Shown here: in pieces, positions 4,637-13,853 of the stretch
Layout of the letters: every line of letters begins with the position of its first letter
How positions within the stretch are numbered: the first letter of the stretch is position 1
NCBI GenBank assembly: GCA_964632175.1
Contig: CAZWBJ010000006.1
Location: forward strand, 1-55,036
Direction of reading: 5' to 3'
Length of the DNA stretch: 55,036 nt
Origin: Candidatus Hadarchaeota archaeon
GTDB lineage: Archaea > Hadarchaeota > Hadarchaeia > Hadarchaeales > JAWBSP01
Translations under genes and position numbers: made by a program
Notes under the pieces: model-generated
Databases searched by the model: none
The model's input: the letters and a program-made list of their open reading frames with translations, nothing else
What the model was told of the DNA's origin: nothing

Positions 4637-6913
4637 TCAGGAATGCGTGTGGACCCTTGTGAGTTCCGCGGCGGCGAGGAGAGCCTGTCCGACCGAGATT
4701 CCACCGTCGCCCGGTGGCACGCTTTCGTGCATCCAGAAGCGCAGGCCATTCCTTTCCACCTCCTCCCTTGCAGCTCGGGTGAGGAAATCGTTGTAGAAAG
4801 CGCCCCCAGATACCCCGATATTCTTTATCCCCCTCTCTAGCGCCTGTTCAACGGCCAAGCTCGCAAGGGCTTTCCCGAGCACGGTTTGGAACCAAGCCGC
4901 CAAGTGTCTCTTCCCGATTCTACTCCGAATGCCATCGAGCAGGGAAAGAAGCAGGGCGGAGGTGTCCACCAAATGGCCCCGCACGAATTTGGAGGGCTCG
5001 TCGGGCAGGCAGCGGGGATCCCCACCCCGGGCCGCCGCCTCCAGCTTCATCGCCGGCTCCCCTTCGTAGGTCCTGAGGTCGCAGATTCCTAGGAGGCAGG
5101 AGGCCGCATCCAGAACCCTCCCGCAGCTTGAAGTGAGGGGCGTGTTGAGGCCGGTTTCGAGCTGGCGGAAGATCATTTCAATCTCCTCGCTTGACAGCCC
5201 ACAGCTGGCCAAAATTTCCTCCAACCCGTCGGCGCCCCAGAGGATTCCAGCCACCATTCTAGCCGGGCGAAGGGTCGCGAGGTCTCCACCGGGCATGGGC
5301 TTGGGTTCCAGCCAGGCGAGCCTTTCGTGTCTCCCCTCCTCCAGTAGCAGAACTTCCCCTCCCCACACCGTCCCATCCTCCCCATACCCCACCCCGTCGG
5401 CCGCTATCCCCACCAAGCTATCCAACCCCTTCTCCGCCATCAGCCCCGCGAGATGCGCCGCGTGGTGCTGCACCCTCACCAGCCTGCACCCGAGCTCACC
5501 AGCAAGCCTCTCCGCCTCAAGGGTTGAGAGGAGCTGGGGATGGAGGTCGCAGGCCACGGCGTCAAAGCTCTCGACCCTCAGAAGCCTCCTCCACTTTCCC
5601 ATGGCCTCCCTCAGGTACAGAAGGACCTCATACTTGTTGAGGTCGCCTATGTGTTGGCTGGTGAAGCAGTAACCGCCCTTAACGATCGAAAAGGTCAAAT
5701 TCAGCTCCGCACCGAGGGCCAGAATTCTCAGGTCTTTGTTTGCGTTGAGTTTGAGGGGAACCGGAACATATCCGCGAGATCTCCTGAGGAAAACGGGTTT
5801 CCCGTCCGTCAGCCTGATCACCGAGTCGTCGCACCTGTTCTCTATTTTCCGATTGTGTAGGAGGAAGTAGTCCGCCTTCAACCTGAGGGCATCCGAGTTC
5901 CGAATGGCCATGGGAAGGCCGGGCAGGTTTCCGCTCGTCATGACGTACGCGGGATCCTTTCCGTAGCCCAGCAAGAGGAAGTGCAGGGGGGAGTATGGGA
6001 GCATGACCCCTATTGTGTCAAGGCCGGGGGAGAGGAGTGGGGAGAGGAAAAAGCTGGAGGATTTTTTGAGGCAGACTATCGGTTTGGCGCGGGAGAGCAG
6101 GAGTTTTTCCTCGACCTCCCCCACCTCGGCGAACTCCCTAACCTTCTCTAGGTTGGGGGACATGACGGCGAAGGGTTGCTGGGGTCTATGGTAAAGTTCC
6201 CTCAGCCTCCTGATGGGTTCGTCCTCCGTGGTTTTCACTGCTAGATGAGTCCCCCCGATTCCCTTCACTGCCAGTATGTGCCCCTCGTCCAGGAGCTTCG
6301 CGGCCTCGGCCAGGGGGTTCTCAACTGGGAGGGGTGTTCCATCGGGCAGAAAGAGTCTGACCACGGGACCGCAGGAAGGGCAACACACGGGCTCGGCCCT
6401 GAACCTCCTGTCGGTGGGGTTCAGATACTCCTCCTTGCACCTCTCGCAGAGAGGGAACTCGCGCATGGTGGTGAGCTCCCTGTCGTAGGGAAGGCCGAGC
6501 AGGATGGTGAACCTGGGCCCGCAGTTCATGCAGGTGATGAAGGGATGGAGATACCTTCTGTTGGAGGGATCTTTCAGCTCTCGCAGGCACTCGGGACAGA
6601 CATCTAGGTCGGGCGGTGGGGGGGAGAGAGATCCCCCGCTCTCGGAGCTTTCGAGGACACGGAAGTCAGTGCGCTGCTCTGGTGTGGCTTCCTCCACTTC
6701 CACCCCCCAGACCTGGATGGGCGGGGGGAGATTCCTGAGCCCTTCGATGAACTCCTCCACTTTTTCCCCTTCCACGAAGATCTCCACGCTCGCATCCCCC
6801 AGATTTCTGACATAACCGGCCAGGTCCAGCTCCTTCGCGAGCCGGTAGCAGGCCGGTCTGAAACCAACTCCCTGGACTATCCCTCTGACTAAGAGCCTTG
6901 TCGCCCGCCTCAC
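4637..6913 (-). CDS. hypF: Carbamoyltransferase HypF
   Basis: Acylphosphatase GIVQGVGFRP, two Zn fingers (CPEC/CMNC, CERC/CPSC), DLHP, QHHAAH, DGVGYG, PPGDGGISVGQ. GTG start at 6913 overlaps the idsA stop. Confidence 0.96.
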   Translation of the reverse strand: MRRATRLLVRGIVQGVGFRPACYRLAKELDLAGYVRNLGDASVEIFVEGEKVEEFIEGLRNLPPPIQVWGVEVEEATPEQRTDFRVLESSESGGSLSPPPPDLDVCPECLRELKDPSNRRYLHPFITCMNCGPRFTILLGLPYDRELTTMREFPLCERCKEEYLNPTDRRFRAEPVCCPSCGPVVRLFLPDGTPLPVENPLAEAAKLLDEGHILAVKGIGGTHLAVKTTEDEPIRRLRELYHRPQQPFAVMSPNLEKVREFAEVGEVEEKLLLSRAKPIVCLKKSSSFFLSPLLSPGLDTIGVMLPYSPLHFLLLGYGKDPAYVMTSGNLPGLPMAIRNSDALRLKADYFLLHNRKIENRCDDSVIRLTDGKPVFLRRSRGYVPVPLKLNANKDLRILALGAELNLTFSIVKGGYCFTSQHIGDLNKYEVLLYLREAMGKWRRLLRVESFDAVACDLHPQLLSTLEAERLAGELGCRLVRVQHHAAHLAGLMAEKGLDSLVGIAADGVGYGEDGTVWGGEVLLLEEGRHERLAWLEPKPMPGGDLATLRPARMVAGILWGADGLEEILASCGLSSEEIEMIFRQLETGLNTPLTSSCGRVLDAASCLLGICDLRTYEGEPAMKLEAAARGGDPRCLPDEPSKFVRGHLVDTSALLLSLLDGIRSRIGKRHLAAWFQTVLGKALASLAVEQALERGIKNIGVSGGAFYNDFLTRAAREEVERNGLRFWMHESVPPGDGGISVGQALLAAAELTRVHTHS

Positions 6914-7851
6914 TTTTCTCTGGCCACCGCGTGTTCTACGAGGGAAAGCAGGACGCTCTTTCCCCTGCCCTCCCTGAGACCGGAGAGCGAGCGTTTGGCC
7001 CTCTCCGCGAAATCCTTGGCAATTTCGGTGCACTCCTCCAAGATTCCCGCCCGTTCCATATGCTTCTTTATTTCCTCAATCTCGGACGCCGTCAGATCCC
7101 TCTTGCCGATTTTTAAGAAAACGCCCCCTGCCTTGACCGCCTTGAGTATGGGCAGGCTAGGCTTGCCCAGCCTTATGTCGGAATCCGTTGATTTTCCGAC
7201 CTGACCGATAATCCCCAGACTCAGAACATCATCCCTTATCTGGAAGGAGATCCCGAGCAACCTGCCGTATTTTGAGAGCGCCTTCACCTCCTCGGGCTTC
7301 CCCTCCCCCATCATCGCACCGATTTGCACGGCGGCCGCCATAAGAGAGCCTGTTTTTTTCTCCACCATTTTCAGGTATTCTGCCTCGGTAACGGAGGAAA
7401 GCCTTCGGGACATCAGAACATCCATGGCTTGCCCCTCGCACACCTCCTGGATGGAGGAGGCTAAAATGGTTGAGGCAGGGGAGCCCGAACCCAGCATTTC
7501 GAAGGCTCGGGCGAGGAGAAAATCCCCAGCCGTTATGGCTATGGGTATCCCCCAAACCGTGTGGACGGTCTTGAGCCCCCTCCTCTCCTCCGATTCATCC
7601 ATGATATCATCGTGGATGAGAGTGAAGAGGTGAACGATCTCGACCGCAGCAGCGGCCCTCAGGGCCCTTAGGGGTTTGCCCCCCACCGCTTCACACGAGG
7701 CCAAGACCAGCAGGGGTCTGAGGAGCTTGCCCCCCTTCGTCAAATGTAGGCATGCCTCCTTGAGCTCCGGCGGCTGGATGCGGGACAGGCCTTTGGAGAT
7801 TTCCTCCCTTATCCTCCTCTCATATCTTGAGAGGTATTCCTGGACATCCAT
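6910..7851 (-). CDS. idsA: Short-chain polyprenyl (geranylgeranyl) diphosphate synthase
   Basis: GGKLLRP, FTLIHDDIMD (first Asp-rich motif), RRG, GQAMD, KKTG, FQIRDD. Confidence 0.9.
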   Translation of the reverse strand: MDVQEYLSRYERRIREEISKGLSRIQPPELKEACLHLTKGGKLLRPLLVLASCEAVGGKPLRALRAAAAVEIVHLFTLIHDDIMDESEERRGLKTVHTVWGIPIAITAGDFLLARAFEMLGSGSPASTILASSIQEVCEGQAMDVLMSRRLSSVTEAEYLKMVEKKTGSLMAAAVQIGAMMGEGKPEEVKALSKYGRLLGISFQIRDDVLSLGIIGQVGKSTDSDIRLGKPSLPILKAVKAGGVFLKIGKRDLTASEIEEIKKHMERAGILEECTEIAKDFAERAKRSLSGLREGRGKSVLLSLVEHAVAREK

Positions 7852-7897: not shown

Positions 7898-8296
7898 ATG
7901 GCCCTTACTAGGATAAGCCTGACCCTACCGGAGGAGCTCCTGAAGCAGCTTGATTCTTACCTGAGCCGCACCGGGTATCCCAGCAGGTCAGAAGCGGTCA
8001 GGGATGCTCTTCTGGCGTTTCTCTCCGAGCAGAGGGAGCTGAGAAGCATGAGAGGCGAGGGTGTGGGGGTACTCGTACTCGTCTATGATCACGAAACGCG
8101 GGGACTGGTTGACCAGCTGATAGACCTTCAGCATGAGTGCAGGGAGCTGATAATCTCGAGCCAGCATGTGCATTTGGATGCTAGAACGTGCCTAGAGATC
8201 TTGGTTCTGAGAGGACGGGGCGAGAAGATTGCGCAGAGCGTTGAAAGGCTGGGTTCACTGAGAGGGGTGAAAATGGCTAGGCTGGTTAAGATTTAG
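7898..8296 (+). CDS. nikR: Nickel-responsive transcriptional regulator NikR
   Basis: RHH N-terminus RISLTLPEELL...SRSEAVRDA; Ni ligands in LQHE...SQHVHLDARTCLE. Start at ATG 7898. Confidence 0.95.
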   Translation: MALTRISLTLPEELLKQLDSYLSRTGYPSRSEAVRDALLAFLSEQRELRSMRGEGVGVLVLVYDHETRGLVDQLIDLQHECRELIISSQHVHLDARTCLEILVLRGRGEKIAQSVERLGSLRGVKMARLVKI

Positions 8297-8308: not shown

Positions 8309-8338
8309 GGTAATATTTAAATAGGAAAAAGTAATACC
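8309..8338. promoter_or_regulatory. Putative NikR operator overlapping a TATA box
   Basis: GGTAATA-N16-TAATACC imperfect inverted repeat with the same 6-16-6 geometry as the E. coli NikR site GTATGA-N16-TCATAC. The spacer contains TTTAAATA (8316-8323). Confidence 0.75.
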
Positions 8339-8341
8339 AAA

Positions 8342-8680
8342 ATGGCATGCTTTCTCGTTCCCATGGGTCTCGCCCTTGTGACTACCGCCCTGAGGAAGAG
8401 GTTCCCCGAGAACCTGCAGATAAGTTGGCTGAACGCCCTCCTTTGGGGTGCAGTGCTCATGCTGGCGGTGGAACACCTAGCGCACGGAGAGGTCGTGCCC
8501 TATCCTCCCTTTCTTACCAAGGGGATCTCTGAGGTGTTGCCCGAGATGCTCCAGGTGGGGTTCCCGATGACGCTTTCGATGGTGGGAGTATGGGGGGGCA
8601 TGCTCGCGGTCGACCGCCGCTTCAGAATAACAGATAGGATAAGGGCAATAGGCCCTCGGACAGGTGTTATCGGGCGCTGA
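8342..8680 (+). CDS. Small membrane protein A of unknown function (candidate Ni uptake)
   Basis: 112 aa, about 3 hydrophobic segments, N-terminal MACF, WGAVLMLAVEHLAHGE motif. Confidence 0.75.
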   Translation: MACFLVPMGLALVTTALRKRFPENLQISWLNALLWGAVLMLAVEHLAHGEVVPYPPFLTKGISEVLPEMLQVGFPMTLSMVGVWGGMLAVDRRFRITDRIRAIGPRTGVIGR

Positions 8681-8949
8681 TGTGGCTCATAACAACTCTG
8701 GGGCTGGCGGTCGTCGCATCTCTCGCCACTATTGTCTTCAGGTGGAGATATCGTCTTTCACTGTTGGCTCTCATGTTTTGGGGCGCCACGGTCGCGATTT
8801 TTGTGGATCATCTAATTGGGTGGTGGGAGGAGGGTGGCAGTTTCCTTCAGGCTCGGACGGAGGGATGGGTTGGGAGCGGGCCCCTCCTTGGCCTCCTCAT
8901 GGCCGTCCCAGTCTTGGTTGTGTGGATCGCTCTTGTGATCCGGCGGTAG
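8680..8949 (+). CDS. Small membrane protein B of unknown function, paralog of A
   Basis: 89 aa, about 3 TM segments, WGATVAIFVDHL motif, TGATG coupling to gene A. Confidence 0.75.
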   Translation: MWLITTLGLAVVASLATIVFRWRYRLSLLALMFWGATVAIFVDHLIGWWEEGGSFLQARTEGWVGSGPLLGLLMAVPVLVVWIALVIRR

Positions 8950-9005: not shown

Positions 9006-10013
9006 ATGCAGGGGGAGAGGATAACTTGGGTGCAGGGGGCGGGAGGGAGGCTCATGGCCGAACTCATTCGCCGGACCGTTCTGCAGGAGTTCTCCCTCCG
9101 GAGGGCCGGAAAAGTTGGGCTGGATGAACTGGAGGACGGTGCCACGGTGGATGTAGACGGGAAAACTCTCGTATTCACCACCGATTCCTACACCGTCAGA
9201 CCACCGATCTTCCCGGGAGGGGACATTGGAAGTCTCTCCATTTCGGGAACGATAAACGATCTAGCCGTGATGGGTGCCCAACCTCTCGCCATCGCCTGCT
9301 CGGTAGTCTTGCCTGAGGGGATGGGGGTAGAAGAATTCCGACAAATCCTGCGTTCAGCGAATGAGGTCTCCAGAGAGGTGGGCGTCCCCATAATAACCGG
9401 GGATCTGAAGGTGACCGAGAAAGGGGCCCTGGACGGTCCAATCATAACTACGGCAGGGGTCGGTTTGGCGCACAGGCTTGTCAGAAACTCGGGCCTCCAA
9501 CCGGGGGATAAAATTCTGGTCAGCGGAAGCGTGGGCGAGCACGGGGCCTGTATCCTTGCATGCCGGCACGGGATGGGAACCATCTCCTCCGATGCCGCCC
9601 CCGTTCTCCCCGTCGTTAGGGCGGCCATGGCTTCAGGCGAGGTAACGGCCATGAAGGATCCAACGAGGGGGGGTTTGGCAGCGGCCCTCAACGAGCTGGC
9701 GGAAAAATCAGGGGTTGGAATAGAGCTGGAGGAGGGGGCCATCCCAGTTTCCGAGCCTGTCAGGGGGCTCTGCGACCTGCTGGGTTTGGATGTGCTCGGC
9801 CTCGCCTGCGAGGGGAGAGTGGTGATGGGAGTGAGGGGGGAGGACAGCGAAAACGTGCTGAGGGAAATCAGACGGGTAAAGGGCGGCGAGGGGGCGGCGA
9901 TAATAGGGGAGGCGGTGCGGGAGCATCCCGGAATGGTGGTTATGAGGACGTGTGTAGGGGGGAGAAGGGTGATCCCAATGCCGGCAGGGGATCCCGTACC
10001 GAGGATATGCTAG
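9006..10013 (+). CDS. hypE: Hydrogenase maturation protein HypE
   Basis: TTDSYTVRPPIFPGGDIG, GTINDLAV, MKDPTRGG, C-terminal PRIC. Confidence 0.96.
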   Translation: MQGERITWVQGAGGRLMAELIRRTVLQEFSLRRAGKVGLDELEDGATVDVDGKTLVFTTDSYTVRPPIFPGGDIGSLSISGTINDLAVMGAQPLAIACSVVLPEGMGVEEFRQILRSANEVSREVGVPIITGDLKVTEKGALDGPIITTAGVGLAHRLVRNSGLQPGDKILVSGSVGEHGACILACRHGMGTISSDAAPVLPVVRAAMASGEVTAMKDPTRGGLAAALNELAEKSGVGIELEEGAIPVSEPVRGLCDLLGLDVLGLACEGRVVMGVRGEDSENVLREIRRVKGGEGAAIIGEAVREHPGMVVMRTCVGGRRVIPMPAGDPVPRIC

Positions 10014-11143
10014 GGGAAGTGGTGAAGCCCTTCAGAGACAATCCGGAGCTAGCCAAATCTCTGTGCTCTAGGATCCGCTTGCTTGCCTCCCGGGTCGGTC
10101 ATGTAAAGTTCATGAACTTTTGCGGGACCCACGAGTGGACCACGGTTCACTTCGGGATAAGGAGTCTCCTTCCCCCCAACGTAGAGCTGGTGGCCGGCCC
10201 AGGCTGCCCGGTCTGCGTTACACCCTCTTACTTTGTCGAACAGGCCATCCGTCTGGCCTTGGAGGGCGTGACTGTTTACACTTACGGGGACTCTTACAGA
10301 CTGCCAGCCCTGAGGGCGGTTGATGGCTGTCGGTCGCTCGAGGAGGCCAGAGCCCTAGGTGGAAAGGTGAGGCTCGTCTACAGCTTCCTGGAGTCCGCAA
10401 AGGAGGCAAGGGAAGAATCTCTCTTTTTTGGTATAGGCTTCGAAACCCTAGCTCCTATCTATTCCTCCCTTCTGGTAAGCGGAAAGGTCCCGAGGAATTT
10501 AAAGCTGCTGAGTCTGGTAAAACTCACCCCACCCGCAGCCAGGTTTGCCATAAAATACCACATGGATAGAGGGCTCCTTCCCCTCAGCGGCGTGATCGCA
10601 CCGGGTCACGTCTCAACGGTAATAGGCGCCAGTTCTTGGGAGTTTCTCCCCAAGGAGTTCGGTCTCCCCACGGTGGTTGCGGGTTTTGAGCCCATTGACG
10701 TCTTGGCCGCCGTCCTGCTCCTGCTCGAGATGCTCGTGGAAAAAAAACCGCGGGTGGTGACAGAGTACAGGAGGGCGGTGCGGTGGGAGGGAAACCTTCC
10801 GGCCAAGGAGAGCATGGGGGAGGTCTTCGAAAGTTCCGATTCGTCCTGGAGGGGGATTGGGGTGATCCCGAAGAGCGGATTGTTTCTGAAGGAGGAATTT
10901 TCAGATTTCGATGCCTACAGGCATTTTAACCTGGAGAAGGTGCCGCGCTCCGAAAGGGATCTGGAGCCGGGTTGCAGATGCGGCGAGATAATCGTGGGGG
11001 CGGCCAGACCGACCGATTGCCCCCTGTTCGGAAAGAAATGCACTCCGGGCTCTCCGGTGGGCCCATGTATGGTCTCAGTGGAGGGCCCCTGCAATATTTG
11101 GGCGAGATTTGGTGGTGGGGATGTGCCTGGGAACGGTAGGTAG
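10007..11143 (+). CDS. hypD: Hydrogenase maturation protein HypD
   Basis: CGTH, GPGCPVC, GFET, PGHVS and C-terminal Cys cluster GPCMVSVEGPC. Confidence 0.96.
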   Translation: MLGEVVKPFRDNPELAKSLCSRIRLLASRVGHVKFMNFCGTHEWTTVHFGIRSLLPPNVELVAGPGCPVCVTPSYFVEQAIRLALEGVTVYTYGDSYRLPALRAVDGCRSLEEARALGGKVRLVYSFLESAKEAREESLFFGIGFETLAPIYSSLLVSGKVPRNLKLLSLVKLTPPAARFAIKYHMDRGLLPLSGVIAPGHVSTVIGASSWEFLPKEFGLPTVVAGFEPIDVLAAVLLLLEMLVEKKPRVVTEYRRAVRWEGNLPAKESMGEVFESSDSSWRGIGVIPKSGLFLKEEFSDFDAYRHFNLEKVPRSERDLEPGCRCGEIIVGAARPTDCPLFGKKCTPGSPVGPCMVSVEGPCNIWARFGGGDVPGNGR

Positions 11144-11339
11144 GGTACAGAAGGTGGAAGGGGGGGAGATCCTTGTGGACTTTGGGGGAATCCAGCGGCG
11201 CGTGGTCTGTTTAGAGGAGGTGAGGGAGGGCGAGCTGGTCGTGGTACACGCCGGGCTCGTTATAGGAAAGATGAGAGAGGAGGATTACAGAAGAAACATC
11301 GAGGAGATTCAACTCTTGCTTGGGGAGACAGGAAAATAG
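11121..11339 (+). CDS. hypC: Hydrogenase maturation chaperone HypC
   Basis: N-terminal MCLG, VDFGG, VVVHAG. Confidence 0.93.
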   Translation: MCLGTVGRVQKVEGGEILVDFGGIQRRVVCLEEVREGELVVVHAGLVIGKMREEDYRRNIEEIQLLLGETGK

Positions 11340-11373: not shown

Positions 11374-11979
11374 ATGAGGGAGCGGATCGAGGAGTACTTG
11401 GAGGCGATGGTGCGGCTGAAAGAAGTGGGCAGAGAGCTCACCACCACCAATCTCGCCAAGCTGTTGAAAGTGGCACCCGCCACCGTTACTGAGATGTTGA
11501 GAAAGCTCGCTAAGGGTGGGTATGTCTCCTACTCTCCCTACCGGGAGATCTCGCTCACCGCGAAGGGCGAGGCCGCTGGGAAGAAGGTCCTGAGGAAGCA
11601 CAGGGTGGCGGAGGGCTTCCTGAGACAGATGGGGATTCCGGAAGAAAGGGTTCACGAGCATGCCTGCGGGCTGGAGCACCACCTCTCGGACGAGCTAGAG
11701 GAGGCGATCCACCGCAGGGTTGAGAGGGAAAGGTTGGGTGCGCCCGAAAACATGCTCCCCTTAACCGCCTTGCTGGAGGGGGAGGAAGGAGCGGTAGAGA
11801 AGATTATGGGGGGAAGGAGCGCCTGCCAGAGGCTTTCCGCAATGGGCCTGACTCCCGGTACCCGCGTTAAAGTTGTCAAATCCTCACTCTTCGGCGGGCC
11901 GATGCTGATTTCCGTGCGGGGAACGACTCTTGCGCTCGGAAGGGGGATAGCGGAGAAGGTCCTGGTCAGGAGGGACTGA
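11374..11979 (+). CDS. DtxR/MntR-family metal-dependent repressor with C-terminal FeoA domain
   Basis: EEYLEAM, HTH VAPATVTEML, RKHRVAE, ACGLEH, followed by FeoA-like RLSAMGLTPG...LALGRGIAEKV. Confidence 0.92.
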   Translation: MRERIEEYLEAMVRLKEVGRELTTTNLAKLLKVAPATVTEMLRKLAKGGYVSYSPYREISLTAKGEAAGKKVLRKHRVAEGFLRQMGIPEERVHEHACGLEHHLSDELEEAIHRRVERERLGAPENMLPLTALLEGEEGAVEKIMGGRSACQRLSAMGLTPGTRVKVVKSSLFGGPMLISVRGTTLALGRGIAEKVLVRRD

Positions 11980-13853
11980 TGGGGGGGATTCTCCGAGTCG
12001 CTCTCGCTGGTCAGCCCAATGTGGGAAAATCGGTGATTTTCAATCAACTGACGGGTCTCCACCAGCACATCGGGAACTGGCCTGGTAAGACGGTGGAAAA
12101 GGCTGAAGGGACCCTCCACTTCGGGGGATATACCGTGGATATCATCGACCTCCCCGGTACCTACTCCCTCAGTGCTTTCACCATCGAGGAGAGAATCGCC
12201 CGTGACTACATCGCGCTGGAAAGGCCGGACGTGGTGGTCAACGTTGTCGATGCCTCCTCCCTCGAGAGGAACCTTTTCTTGACCCTGCAGGTTCTTGAGC
12301 TTGAGGCCCCAACAGTGGTGGCGCTTAACCAGTGGGACGTGGCCAAAAAGAGGGGTTTACAAATCGACGTCCGAAAGCTGGAGGAAAGCCTAGGAGTCCC
12401 TGTCGTCCCCACGGTTGCGGTCACCGGGTCGGGTCTCCACCGTCTGCTGGAGAGGGTAATAGAGCAAAGGGGCAAGAAATCCAGCTTTCCGAGGTACGGC
12501 AGGGAGGTGGAGAAAAAGGTCAGGATTTTGGAAAAGTGGCTGGGAGGGTTGGAGTACCCGCCGAGATGGCTGGCCCTGAAACTGCTGGAGGAGGATGAGG
12601 AGGTTGAAGAGCTTGTGGGGGAGGCAAGACCAGAGGTGTTGTCCCACGTGAGGAAAATGAGAAGGGAGCTAGAGAAAACCCACGGTGAACGTCCCACGGT
12701 GGTTGTAGCAGCCGAGCGGTATTCCCTTGCGGGAAGGATCGCCCGTGAAGTCCAGACAGCCGTTCCGGCGGGGGAGAGGCTTTCGGACAGGCTAGACAGG
12801 ATTACTACCAGCCCCCTCACCGCCTACCCCATTCTAGCCTTGGTGATGCTCTCGCTCTTCCTCGTGGTTTTTCAGGTGGGCGGCAGGTTCACCTGGTTTT
12901 TTGACTCTTTGGCCGGGCGGTTGGAGGGTCTGCACTGGTTGCCCAGAAGTGCCCTCGGGGGGATCCTTGCGGCAGCCTCTGTCGCCCTCCCTTACATCAT
13001 CCCTTTCTATCTTCTCCTCCATCTTCTGGAGGATTCGGGCTACCTCCCGCGTGCCGCCTTCGCGATGGACGCCATTATGCACAAGATGGGCCTGCACGGG
13101 AAGGCTTTCATTCCCGCCGTGCTCGGCTTCGGGTGCGATGTTCCCGCCTGCCTGGGGTGCAGGATCATGGAAACAGAGAGGGAGAAGACTCTAGCCGCCA
13201 TAGTGGTTACCATGATCCCCTGTGCGGCAACCACCGCCGTGATTCTGGGGCTGGTTGGGAAATTTGTGGGTGTGCCAGCCGCAGTGGCGCTCTACGTCCT
13301 TCATTTCAGCATCGTCCTAGCGCTCGGCAGGCTTCTGTTCAAACTCCTGCCTGGGGAACCGGTGGGGCTGATAATGGAGATGCCCTCCTACAGGATCCCC
13401 CATCTTCCGACCGTGCTCAAGGAGACCTGGGGGAGGACGATGGAATTCCTGAAGATCGCTCTCCCCCTGGTGGTGCTGGGAAACGTGGCACTGTCAGCCC
13501 TGTATGAGACCGGAGCGACAGGCGCGCTGAACACTGTGCTCTCTCCCCTTACGGTGGGGTGGCTGGGTCTCCCCGCCATGGCCGGTACCGTGCTCTTGTT
13601 GGGGATTCTCAGGAAGGAAATGATTCTGATCCTACTCGCCACTACTCTGGGAACCGCCAACTTTTCCTCCGTACTGAGTACTCCCCAGATGATGGTTTTG
13701 GGCATGGTGTCCATGCTCTACCTGCCCTGCATCTCGACCTTTGTGGCCTTGGGGAAGGAAGTGGGCTGGCGGAGGGCAGTTTATGTGGCTTTCCTGAGGG
13801 TACTCCTCGCCATTTTCATCGGGGGGCTCCTGTACCGGGCGCTGTCGCTTTAG
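11979..13853 (+). CDS. feoB: Ferrous iron transport protein B
   Basis: [52 protein letters not shown]. Confidence 0.95.

Follow-up and report, generated by a model that had tools for sequence, protein, structure and literature searches.

Two small open reading frames (ORFs), here called A and B, lie between the gene for the nickel-responsive repressor NikR and the hydrogenase maturation genes hypE, hypD and hypC in a 55,036-nucleotide stretch of a Candidatus Hadarchaeota archaeon genome (contig CAZWBJ010000006.1; this whole stretch is referred to as the window). Both encode short membrane proteins, and the two frames overlap by a single base, the TGA of A (8678-8680) donating its A to the ATG of B in a TGATG junction that reads gcgctgatgtgg. 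A sequence-only reading of the window had singled out this coupled pair as a candidate nickel-uptake module, and the coordinates, the overlap and the Pfam assignments of the neighbouring genes all agree with its description of the locus (Table 1). The nikR product shows an H-x-H-x5-C pattern and an upstream histidine, which we take to be its nickel ligands. Taken together, comparison of the pair with its relatives indicates that this widespread, unnamed pair most likely serves nickel import in anaerobes, both archaeal and bacterial, that have none of the known nickel importers.

Table 1. Position and assignment of the features around the A-B pair, numbered from the first base of the window
Feature	Position	Strand	Basis or remark
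hypF	4637-7033	-	Pfam zf-HYPF, HypF_C, HypF_C_2, Sua5_yciO_yrdC, Acylphosphatase
nikR (ribbon-helix-helix Ni-responsive repressor, 132 residues)	7898-8296	+	Pfam NikR_C 3.3e-27, RHH_1 4.9e-8; NCBIfam NikR models up to 6.4e-41
NikR-type operator GTAATAT(8310-8316)-N14-GTAATAC(8331-8337)	8310-8337		sequence reading
TATA-box-like TTTAAATA in operator spacer	8316-8323	+	18 nucleotides before ATG of A
ORF A, membrane protein of 112 residues	8342-8680	+	ORF listing; 3 predicted transmembrane helices
ORF B, membrane protein of 89 residues, A paralogue	8680-8949	+	ORF listing; 3 predicted transmembrane helices
hypE-hypD-hypC	9006-11339	+	Pfam AIRS/AIRS_C (HypE), HypD 2.4e-119, HupF_HypC 3.4e-13
hypE	9006-10013	+	

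Hydrophobicity plots show three Kyte-Doolittle peaks in each protein, consistent with the three or so hydrophobic segments recognised earlier. The alignment of A with B, originally drawn over a shared motif, is reproduced by BLASTP (31% identity over 42 residues, E 1e-4) and extended by profile-profile comparison with hhalign (probability 97.7%, E 2.5e-12, 88 columns); hence A and B are paralogous over nearly their entire length and not in the motif alone. The AlphaFold2 model of A (predicted local distance difference test score, pLDDT, 84.3) has helices at residues 2-16, 27-47 and 62-94 and a short helix at 56-59. Neither protein matched a family in Pfam (hmmscan) or NCBIfam at E<=1, sequence searches of the PDB with profiles of A and B returned nothing meaningful, and Foldseek comparison of the A model with the PDB gave nothing at E<=0.001. 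Pfam likewise holds no family for the bacterial and archaeal homologues or for a single-gene subfamily described below, and no confident match to any characterised family was seen in Pfam, NCBIfam or the PDB. The model of one natural A-B fusion, P0140 (pLDDT 85, predicted template modelling score 0.74), gave a best Z of 6.0 in VIA-align wide, to generic helical bundles; from scores of this kind a common fold can be neither claimed nor dismissed. The predicted complex of A with B scored 0.10 where the mark is 0.32, a value that weighs neither for nor against binding. The ESM Atlas returned ‘hypothetical’ clusters only; one structural row to the FTR1 iron permease fell under the threshold and was not used. 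The A/B family is without a name and without a solved relative, and we found no description of it in the literature searched; the main NikR-regulon survey of 2006 or the supplementary files of PMC2667541 could mention such genes.

A word-indexed search with A returned 181 relatives at E<=0.01, all labelled ‘hypothetical’ and, its own 99% cluster apart, 52-86% identical to the window protein, with source names that include Hadarchaeales, Altiarchaeota, Aenigmatarchaeota, Thermoproteota and Omnitrophota. An exhaustive profile search with A gave 377 clusters at E<=1e-3, of which 221 reach E<=1e-10. Of the 223 stretches encoding a relative in a one-genome-per-species collection we kept 80 loci, several of them short, and located the A and B genes by six-frame hidden Markov model (HMM) searches. 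The word-indexed search had found only six relatives of B; the HMM search found B in 78 of the 80 loci. Each of these 78 B genes directly adjoins A on the same strand; 61 loci have the order B-A and the other 17 the order A-B, and A stands without B only in L033 and L066. The paired loci come from Hadarchaeales, Altiarchaeota, Thermoplasmatota, Thermoproteota, Asgard archaea, DPANN, Omnitrophota, Chloroflexota, WOR-3, Bacteroidota and others.

Such fixed pairing combined with free gene order is a signature of two subunits of one unit. Furthermore, natural fusions exist whose N-terminal part is A and whose C-terminal part is B without the first helix, both full-length (P0140, P0156, P0201, P0239, P0149, P0176, P0217, P0199 and P0268) and truncated (P0130, P0135 and P0137). 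These were recovered only by the exhaustive profile search, a word-indexed search for longer relatives giving none. Loss of the first helix of B joins the two proteins in the way that an orientation with the N-terminus outside and the C-terminus inside (N-out/C-in), predicted for both below, would require. Obligate adjacency in either order and the natural fusions lend indirect support to the idea of an A:B heteromer.

The pair is accompanied by signs of nickel regulation. A NikR homologue was found by tblastn in 45 of the 80 loci, and exact GTnnnAC-N13/14-GTnnnAC sites occur 18 times in 20.6 kb of DNA preceding the pair or nikR (0.87/kb) versus 17 times in the other 702 kb (0.024/kb), a roughly 36-fold enrichment in regulatory regions. 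With up to one mismatch allowed, a box is present in these regions in 52 of the 78 loci that could be evaluated, at densities of 3.34/kb in regulatory regions and 0.37/kb elsewhere. Neighbouring genes were clustered and one representative of each cluster was scanned for families. LarC (Ni_insertion, 6.9e-94) lies just downstream of the pair in five Thermoplasmatota loci, and six of the 12 Hadarchaeales genomes that match A strongly have a gene for the [NiFe]-hydrogenase large subunit about 2-8 kb away. Many archaeal loci have a unit of nikR, B and A alone. The association with nikR, the upstream boxes and the nickel-enzyme context (LarC, HypF and [NiFe]-hydrogenase nearby) that the sequence-only reading had proposed looking for were therefore all observed among the homologues. 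Of the 80 loci, only 0, 1, 1 and 1 contain homologues of hypE, hypD, hypC and hypF, so that the hyp linkage, and with it the proposed connection to hydrogenase maturation, is local to the lineage of the window. In other lineages the pair is accompanied by porins or LarC.

The porins belong to the Omnitrophota operons, which run nikR-(DUF2292)-outer-membrane barrel-B-A with the box upstream of nikR. The barrel is either of the OprB family (a cluster in 21 loci; 3.1e-31) or of the Phenol_MetA_deg type (six loci; 2.2e-8). A second box, GTAGCAC-N13-GTAGCAC or GTAACAC-N13-GTAGCAC, is present at the start of the porin gene in six loci (L012:4220, L013:266, L015:522, L026:868, L030:4295 and L041:4170); its presence before two unrelated porin families suggests an internal NikR site and not conservation of coding sequence. 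DUF2292 (PF10055, 3.4e-15 in the one scanned) lies between nikR and the porin gene at L009:400-567, L023:3973-4134 and in seven other Omnitrophota loci, and a nickel-related role is possible for this family of unknown function. One Omnitrophota assembly carries two full nikR-DUF2292-porin-B-A operons on two contigs (L023 and L057). A different arrangement was seen in two Hadarchaeales loci, where two tandem deoxyhypusine synthase paralogues are found between nikR and A-B (L005:3854-5882 and L017:3890-5867; PF01916 at 7.7e-109 and 2.9e-97 in L005).

Regarding the operator of the window, the bases assigned to it by the sequence-only reading and the TATA box in its spacer both stand. Its parse as a 6-16-6 repeat does not, as GTAATA-N16-TAATAC is only a 5/6 inverted repeat. 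A 7-14-7 parse of the GTnnnAC-N13/14-GTnnnAC type fits better, and the 6-16-6 arrangement of Escherichia coli does not fit. Each half-site, GTA-N-TAC, comes close to being a palindrome, and only the central base therefore distinguishes a direct from an inverted arrangement. The same geometry has been reported for delta-proteobacterial NikR boxes, GTGTTAC-[N13/14]-GTAACAC, also found in reversed orientation (PMC545781). The pattern GTAWTAY-N14-GTAWTAC occurs without mismatch at a single site in the entire 1,079,354-base genome, namely the window operator, and with one mismatch at one further site on a different contig; a reversed control pattern gave no matches in the genome.

Identical or near-identical boxes lie upstream of homologues in L005, L007, L010, L025, L031, L035, L040 and L083-L090. 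The exact half-sites of the window recur in the Hadarchaeales relatives L025 and L035, the form GTAATAT-N14-GTATTAC is present in L005, L007 and L010, and an A/T-rich, TATA-like spacer is recurrent in the related archaeal boxes. In the window the right half-site lies 4 nucleotides from the ATG of A. A box that flanks the TATA element and stops this close to the start codon would repress by promoter occlusion, and the spacing of TATA, box and ATG suggests a leaderless or near-leaderless A-B transcript. The site also offers a clean model of an archaeal NikR operator and promoter. No terminator-like site was found on scanning the interval between B and hypE, and A-B is possibly co-transcribed with hypEDC; a listing of public runs showed no RNA data set. 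Directly after hypC, at 11374-13853, are a fusion of a DtxR/IdeR-type repressor with a FeoA domain and then FeoB; their presence beside the nikR and hyp genes makes the region a combined nickel and iron homeostasis island.

Conservation was counted over 81 A and 78 B sequences. In A, C3, F4, P7, H45, E50, E68, M76 and W84 are present in 81/81, E44 in 80/81 (the remaining one being D) and H48 in 80/81. The M-A-C start noted earlier is present in A. An MACF N-terminus is found in 173 of about 197 members of the wider family, nearly all others keeping Cys at position 3, and an alignment of 38 sequences, the divergent fusions among them, likewise shows no change at Cys3. Some database entries with apparent N-terminal extensions contain an internal M-A-C-F, which points to miscalled starts. 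In B, W34, G35, D43, M74 and P77 are present in 78/78, H44 in 76/78 and T60 in 75/78, and the N-terminus M1-W2-L3 is invariant. A divergent A subfamily (P0145, P0146, P0150, P0153, P0154, P0160, P0164 and others) keeps M-A-C-F and E-H-x-W-H-G-E, has a conserved Glu in helix 1 and carries a low-complexity, charged insertion of 30-70 residues in the predicted cytoplasmic loop 1.

The distribution of charge gives a prediction of topology. In A, the mean K+R count is 3.7 in loop 1 and 2.9 in the C-terminal tail versus 0.3 in loop 2, and in B the corresponding values are 2.4 and 2.2 versus 0.9; loop 2 is acidic in both (mean D+E 3.1 in A and 3.4 in B). By the positive-inside rule this bias predicts that A and B are both N-out/C-in, which would place the N-terminus of A, its E44-H45-x2-H48-x-E50 motif and D43-H44 of B on the outer face. 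The invariant E68 and M76 of A and M74 of B fall inside predicted helices.

A simpler form of the family was seen when profile A was run against 65 Hadarchaeales genomes, which gave 12 strong matches (E<1e-40), each with a weaker adjacent match to B, and 16 weak ones. Examination of eight of the 16 weak places revealed a subfamily (C-type; L083-L090 in genomes G011, G040, G022, G015, G038, G030, G021 and G029) consisting of a single protein of about 105 residues with an M-V-C-Y start and a D-H-x2-H-G-E motif. None of the eight loci has a B partner, and nikR adjoins the C-type gene in seven of them. A GTAATA[TC]-N14-GTA[AT]TAC box with a TATA-like spacer lies upstream within one mismatch in six of the eight; the other two boxes are two-mismatch variants judged by eye. 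The C-type protein is probably a homo-oligomeric form ancestral to the A/B pair. Genome G038 contains two nikR copies, one beside CbiM and the other beside the C-type gene (C130:1927-3029 and C5:15270-16025).

Nickel is required by [NiFe]-hydrogenase, carbon monoxide dehydrogenase (CODH), urease, methyl-coenzyme M reductase and the LarC-made pincer cofactor. The window genome, which is 92.7% complete, encodes a [NiFe]-hydrogenase large subunit and hypCDEF; a search for Prismane/CODH gave no match. No CbiM/NikM (PF01891), NicO (PF03824), HupE_UreJ (PF04955), SBP_bac_5 (NikA type) or CbiQ (PF02361) was found in it either, so that the lack of a recognisable nickel importer, first remarked on for the window, extends to the whole of this genome for the families searched. 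Among the 65 Hadarchaeales genomes, [NiFe]-hydrogenase is present in 57, NikR_C in 49, CbiM in 13 and NicO/NiCoT (PF03824) in none, and 28 give a match of any kind to the new family. In five Omnitrophota genomes that carry the operon, [NiFe]-hydrogenase is found throughout, CbiM in a single genome and NicO in none.

Collectively, pairing, nikR linkage, boxes and missing importers are independent comparative support for the original nickel interpretation, and A/B is very probably a nickel-related membrane module under NikR control. On balance we favour the more specific view that the pair is the importer itself, a two-subunit, NikR-repressed Ni2+ uptake permease of an undescribed family. From the sequence comparisons we infer its topology, assembly, nickel binding, transport direction and energy source as follows. 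With sufficient nickel, NikR would occupy GTAATAT-N14-GTAATAC and block transcription; when nickel is scarce the A-B message would be produced, possibly continuing into hypEDC. A and B would insert N-out/C-in and form a hetero-oligomer whose outer face unites the free N-terminus of A (Ala2-Cys3 after removal of Met), the E44-H45-x2-H48-x-E50 motif at the outer end of its second helix and, at the corresponding position of B, D43-H44. Ni2+ would be captured outside and handed through the helix bundle, past E68 and M76 of A and M74 of B, to the cytoplasm without an ATPase. In the double-membraned Omnitrophota, the NikR-controlled porin of the same operon would carry nickel across the outer membrane. 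The importer NikM2 provides a precedent for such capture, for its solved structure has nickel bound by the extracellular N-terminus (Met1 and His2) and His67 (PMC3945884). By analogy, the Ala2 amine and Cys3 of A may act like this N-terminal site.

Several points weigh against a dedicated importer. No nikR is seen in the available stretch of 35 of the 80 loci, several being short, and 26 of 78 loci are without a box at up to one mismatch. The strong A matches do not overlap with CbiM (0 of 12 genomes, hypergeometric P = 0.051) and any family member does so in one of 28 genomes, G038 (P = 0.0034), but these values overstate the exclusivity and are weak as evidence, given the shared ancestry of the genomes, the incompleteness of many of them and the inspection of only eight of the 16 weak matches. 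Nor is the exclusivity strict, since the family and CbiM occur together in G038 and in Omnitrophota genome G067. NikR also regulates non-importer genes in some organisms, as reported for Helicobacter pylori outer-membrane proteins and for hydrogenases. Finally, six helices without an energising partner are very few for an active importer.

Best placed among the alternatives, though in our view unlikely, is that A/B is not itself a transporter but an accessory for nickel capture or delivery (like NikK, NikL or CbiN), or a membrane metallochaperone or sensor, that feeds an unidentified or non-specific cation channel. The very small size of the proteins, with no energy module present, and the clustering of conserved ligand-type residues on one predicted face would suit such a role, and organisms without known nickel transporters may acquire the metal non-specifically via cation influx systems, according to a comparative survey (PMC2667541). 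However, across phyla no third membrane gene is conserved with the pair; the recurrent neighbours are nikR, porins and DUF2292 alone, and many archaeal loci comprise just nikR, B and A. The window genome has neither CbiQ, the T component of energy-coupling factor (ECF) transporters, nor a CbiM core, and the invariant E68, M76 and M74 lie within predicted helices, as expected of a conduction path.

It is more doubtful still that A/B moves or binds a different substrate under NikR, such as Co2+, another divalent metal, or a nickel chelate or metallophore complex. Importers of nickel and cobalt are often cross-specific (PMC3945884; PMC2667541), and with DtxR-FeoA and FeoB just downstream the region is a general metal-homeostasis island. 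Nevertheless, the linked regulator is NikR with its NikR_C domain in the 45 loci, the neighbouring genes are nickel-specific (hyp, LarC and [NiFe]-hydrogenase), and B12 or cobalamin genes are not among the recurrent neighbour clusters.

Quite improbable is a device for nickel or cobalt efflux or tolerance. A small membrane pair with acidic and His residues tied to a nickel regulator might be expected of one, but efflux genes need induction by metal and a box around the TATA element, 4 nucleotides from the ATG, has the geometry expected for a repressor; moreover, operons join the pair to outer-membrane porins and the family fills an importer gap in hydrogenase-bearing genomes. We consider least credible a non-transport role in hydrogenase biogenesis, for example as membrane anchor or assembly factor, for although nikR and hypEDC flank the pair in the window and nothing resembling a terminator was found ahead of hypE, and hydrogenase genes are nearby in 6/12 related genomes, hypE/hypD/hypC/hypF accompany it in a mere 0/1/1/1 of 80 loci, its partners in Omnitrophota and Thermoplasmatota are porins and LarC, and the constant partner is nikR and not hyp.

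A nickel permease made of A and B, if confirmed, would close much of the importer gap in Hadarchaeales (hydrogenase 57/65, CbiM 13/65, NiCoT 0/65, new family 28/65), and would count as a new structural class of metal permease. Comparative surveys have left organisms with nickel enzymes yet no recognisable importer (PMC2667541). The invariant ligand-type residues of the family form a small set that lends itself to testing, and a few hundred protein clusters presently labelled ‘hypothetical’ would be better annotated. A bolder and distinctly tentative extension, which we think rather less probable than the permease itself, is that A/B, the C-type proteins and the fusions represent a new superfamily of minimal, ATP-independent three-helix nickel permeases with a hook formed by the N-terminal amine and the Cys3 thiolate plus an [ED]-H-x2-H-x-E loop, and that these provide the main route of nickel entry for many uncultivated hydrogen-metabolising archaea and Omnitrophota. 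This hook, which would catch Ni2+ outside the cell, would chemically resemble the site at the N-terminus of NikM and that of nickel superoxide dismutase, but would be thiolate-based, which would confine it to anaerobes. On that premise the homo-oligomeric, heterodimeric and fusion forms would record the evolution of the superfamily.

Among the closest known systems is NikM/CbiM with NikN/CbiN, the S-components of ECF-type nickel and cobalt importers. Like A/B these are candidates for NikR-linked nickel uptake, with a conserved extreme N-terminus that is extracellular (shown for NikM2, predicted for A), His residues in the membrane domain and a division between two membrane subunits of unequal size. 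In contrast, A/B has no PF01891 match, has 3+3 helices instead of 7+2, and occurs in the window genome without CbiQ. The M-A-C-F N-terminus of A is also not the nickel-binding Met-His, making this an analogous feature and not the same one, and CbiM coincides with the new family in only one of the 65 Hadarchaeales genomes.

NiCoT (HoxN/NixA) and HupE/UreJ are single polypeptides of eight or six helices with the signatures HX4DH and HX5DH. They resemble A/B in being membrane proteins that import nickel for hydrogenase or urease independently of an ATPase, as proposed here for A/B, and in having an acidic-His dyad at a helix end. They differ in that A/B has no match to PF03824 or PF04955 and comprises two three-helix paralogues instead. 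The Ctr copper permeases are built from three-helix N-out/C-in subunits that form an oligomeric, energy-independent metal pore, with extracellular N-terminal metal ligands and conserved Met residues in the helices. There is no detectable sequence or fold match to Ctr, the metal and the taxa are different, and A/B would be hetero-oligomeric; the likeness is one of architecture only, namely three helices, the predicted N-out/C-in orientation, N-terminal ligand residues and a helix Met.

Small three-helix modules encoded by adjacent paralogous genes or fusions, with an acidic motif, are also found in the proposed cation transporters of the UPF0016 family (GDT1/TMEM165; PMC4067407). The A/B proteins are without the E-x-G-D-[KR]-[ST] motif of this family and without a Pfam match, and both halves are predicted to have the same orientation. 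CbtA/CbtB belongs to the B12 regulon and to a different metal, with no sequence relation to A/B detected. Its likeness to A/B is that it too is a two-gene membrane system predicted from regulatory and genomic context only (PMC2667541).

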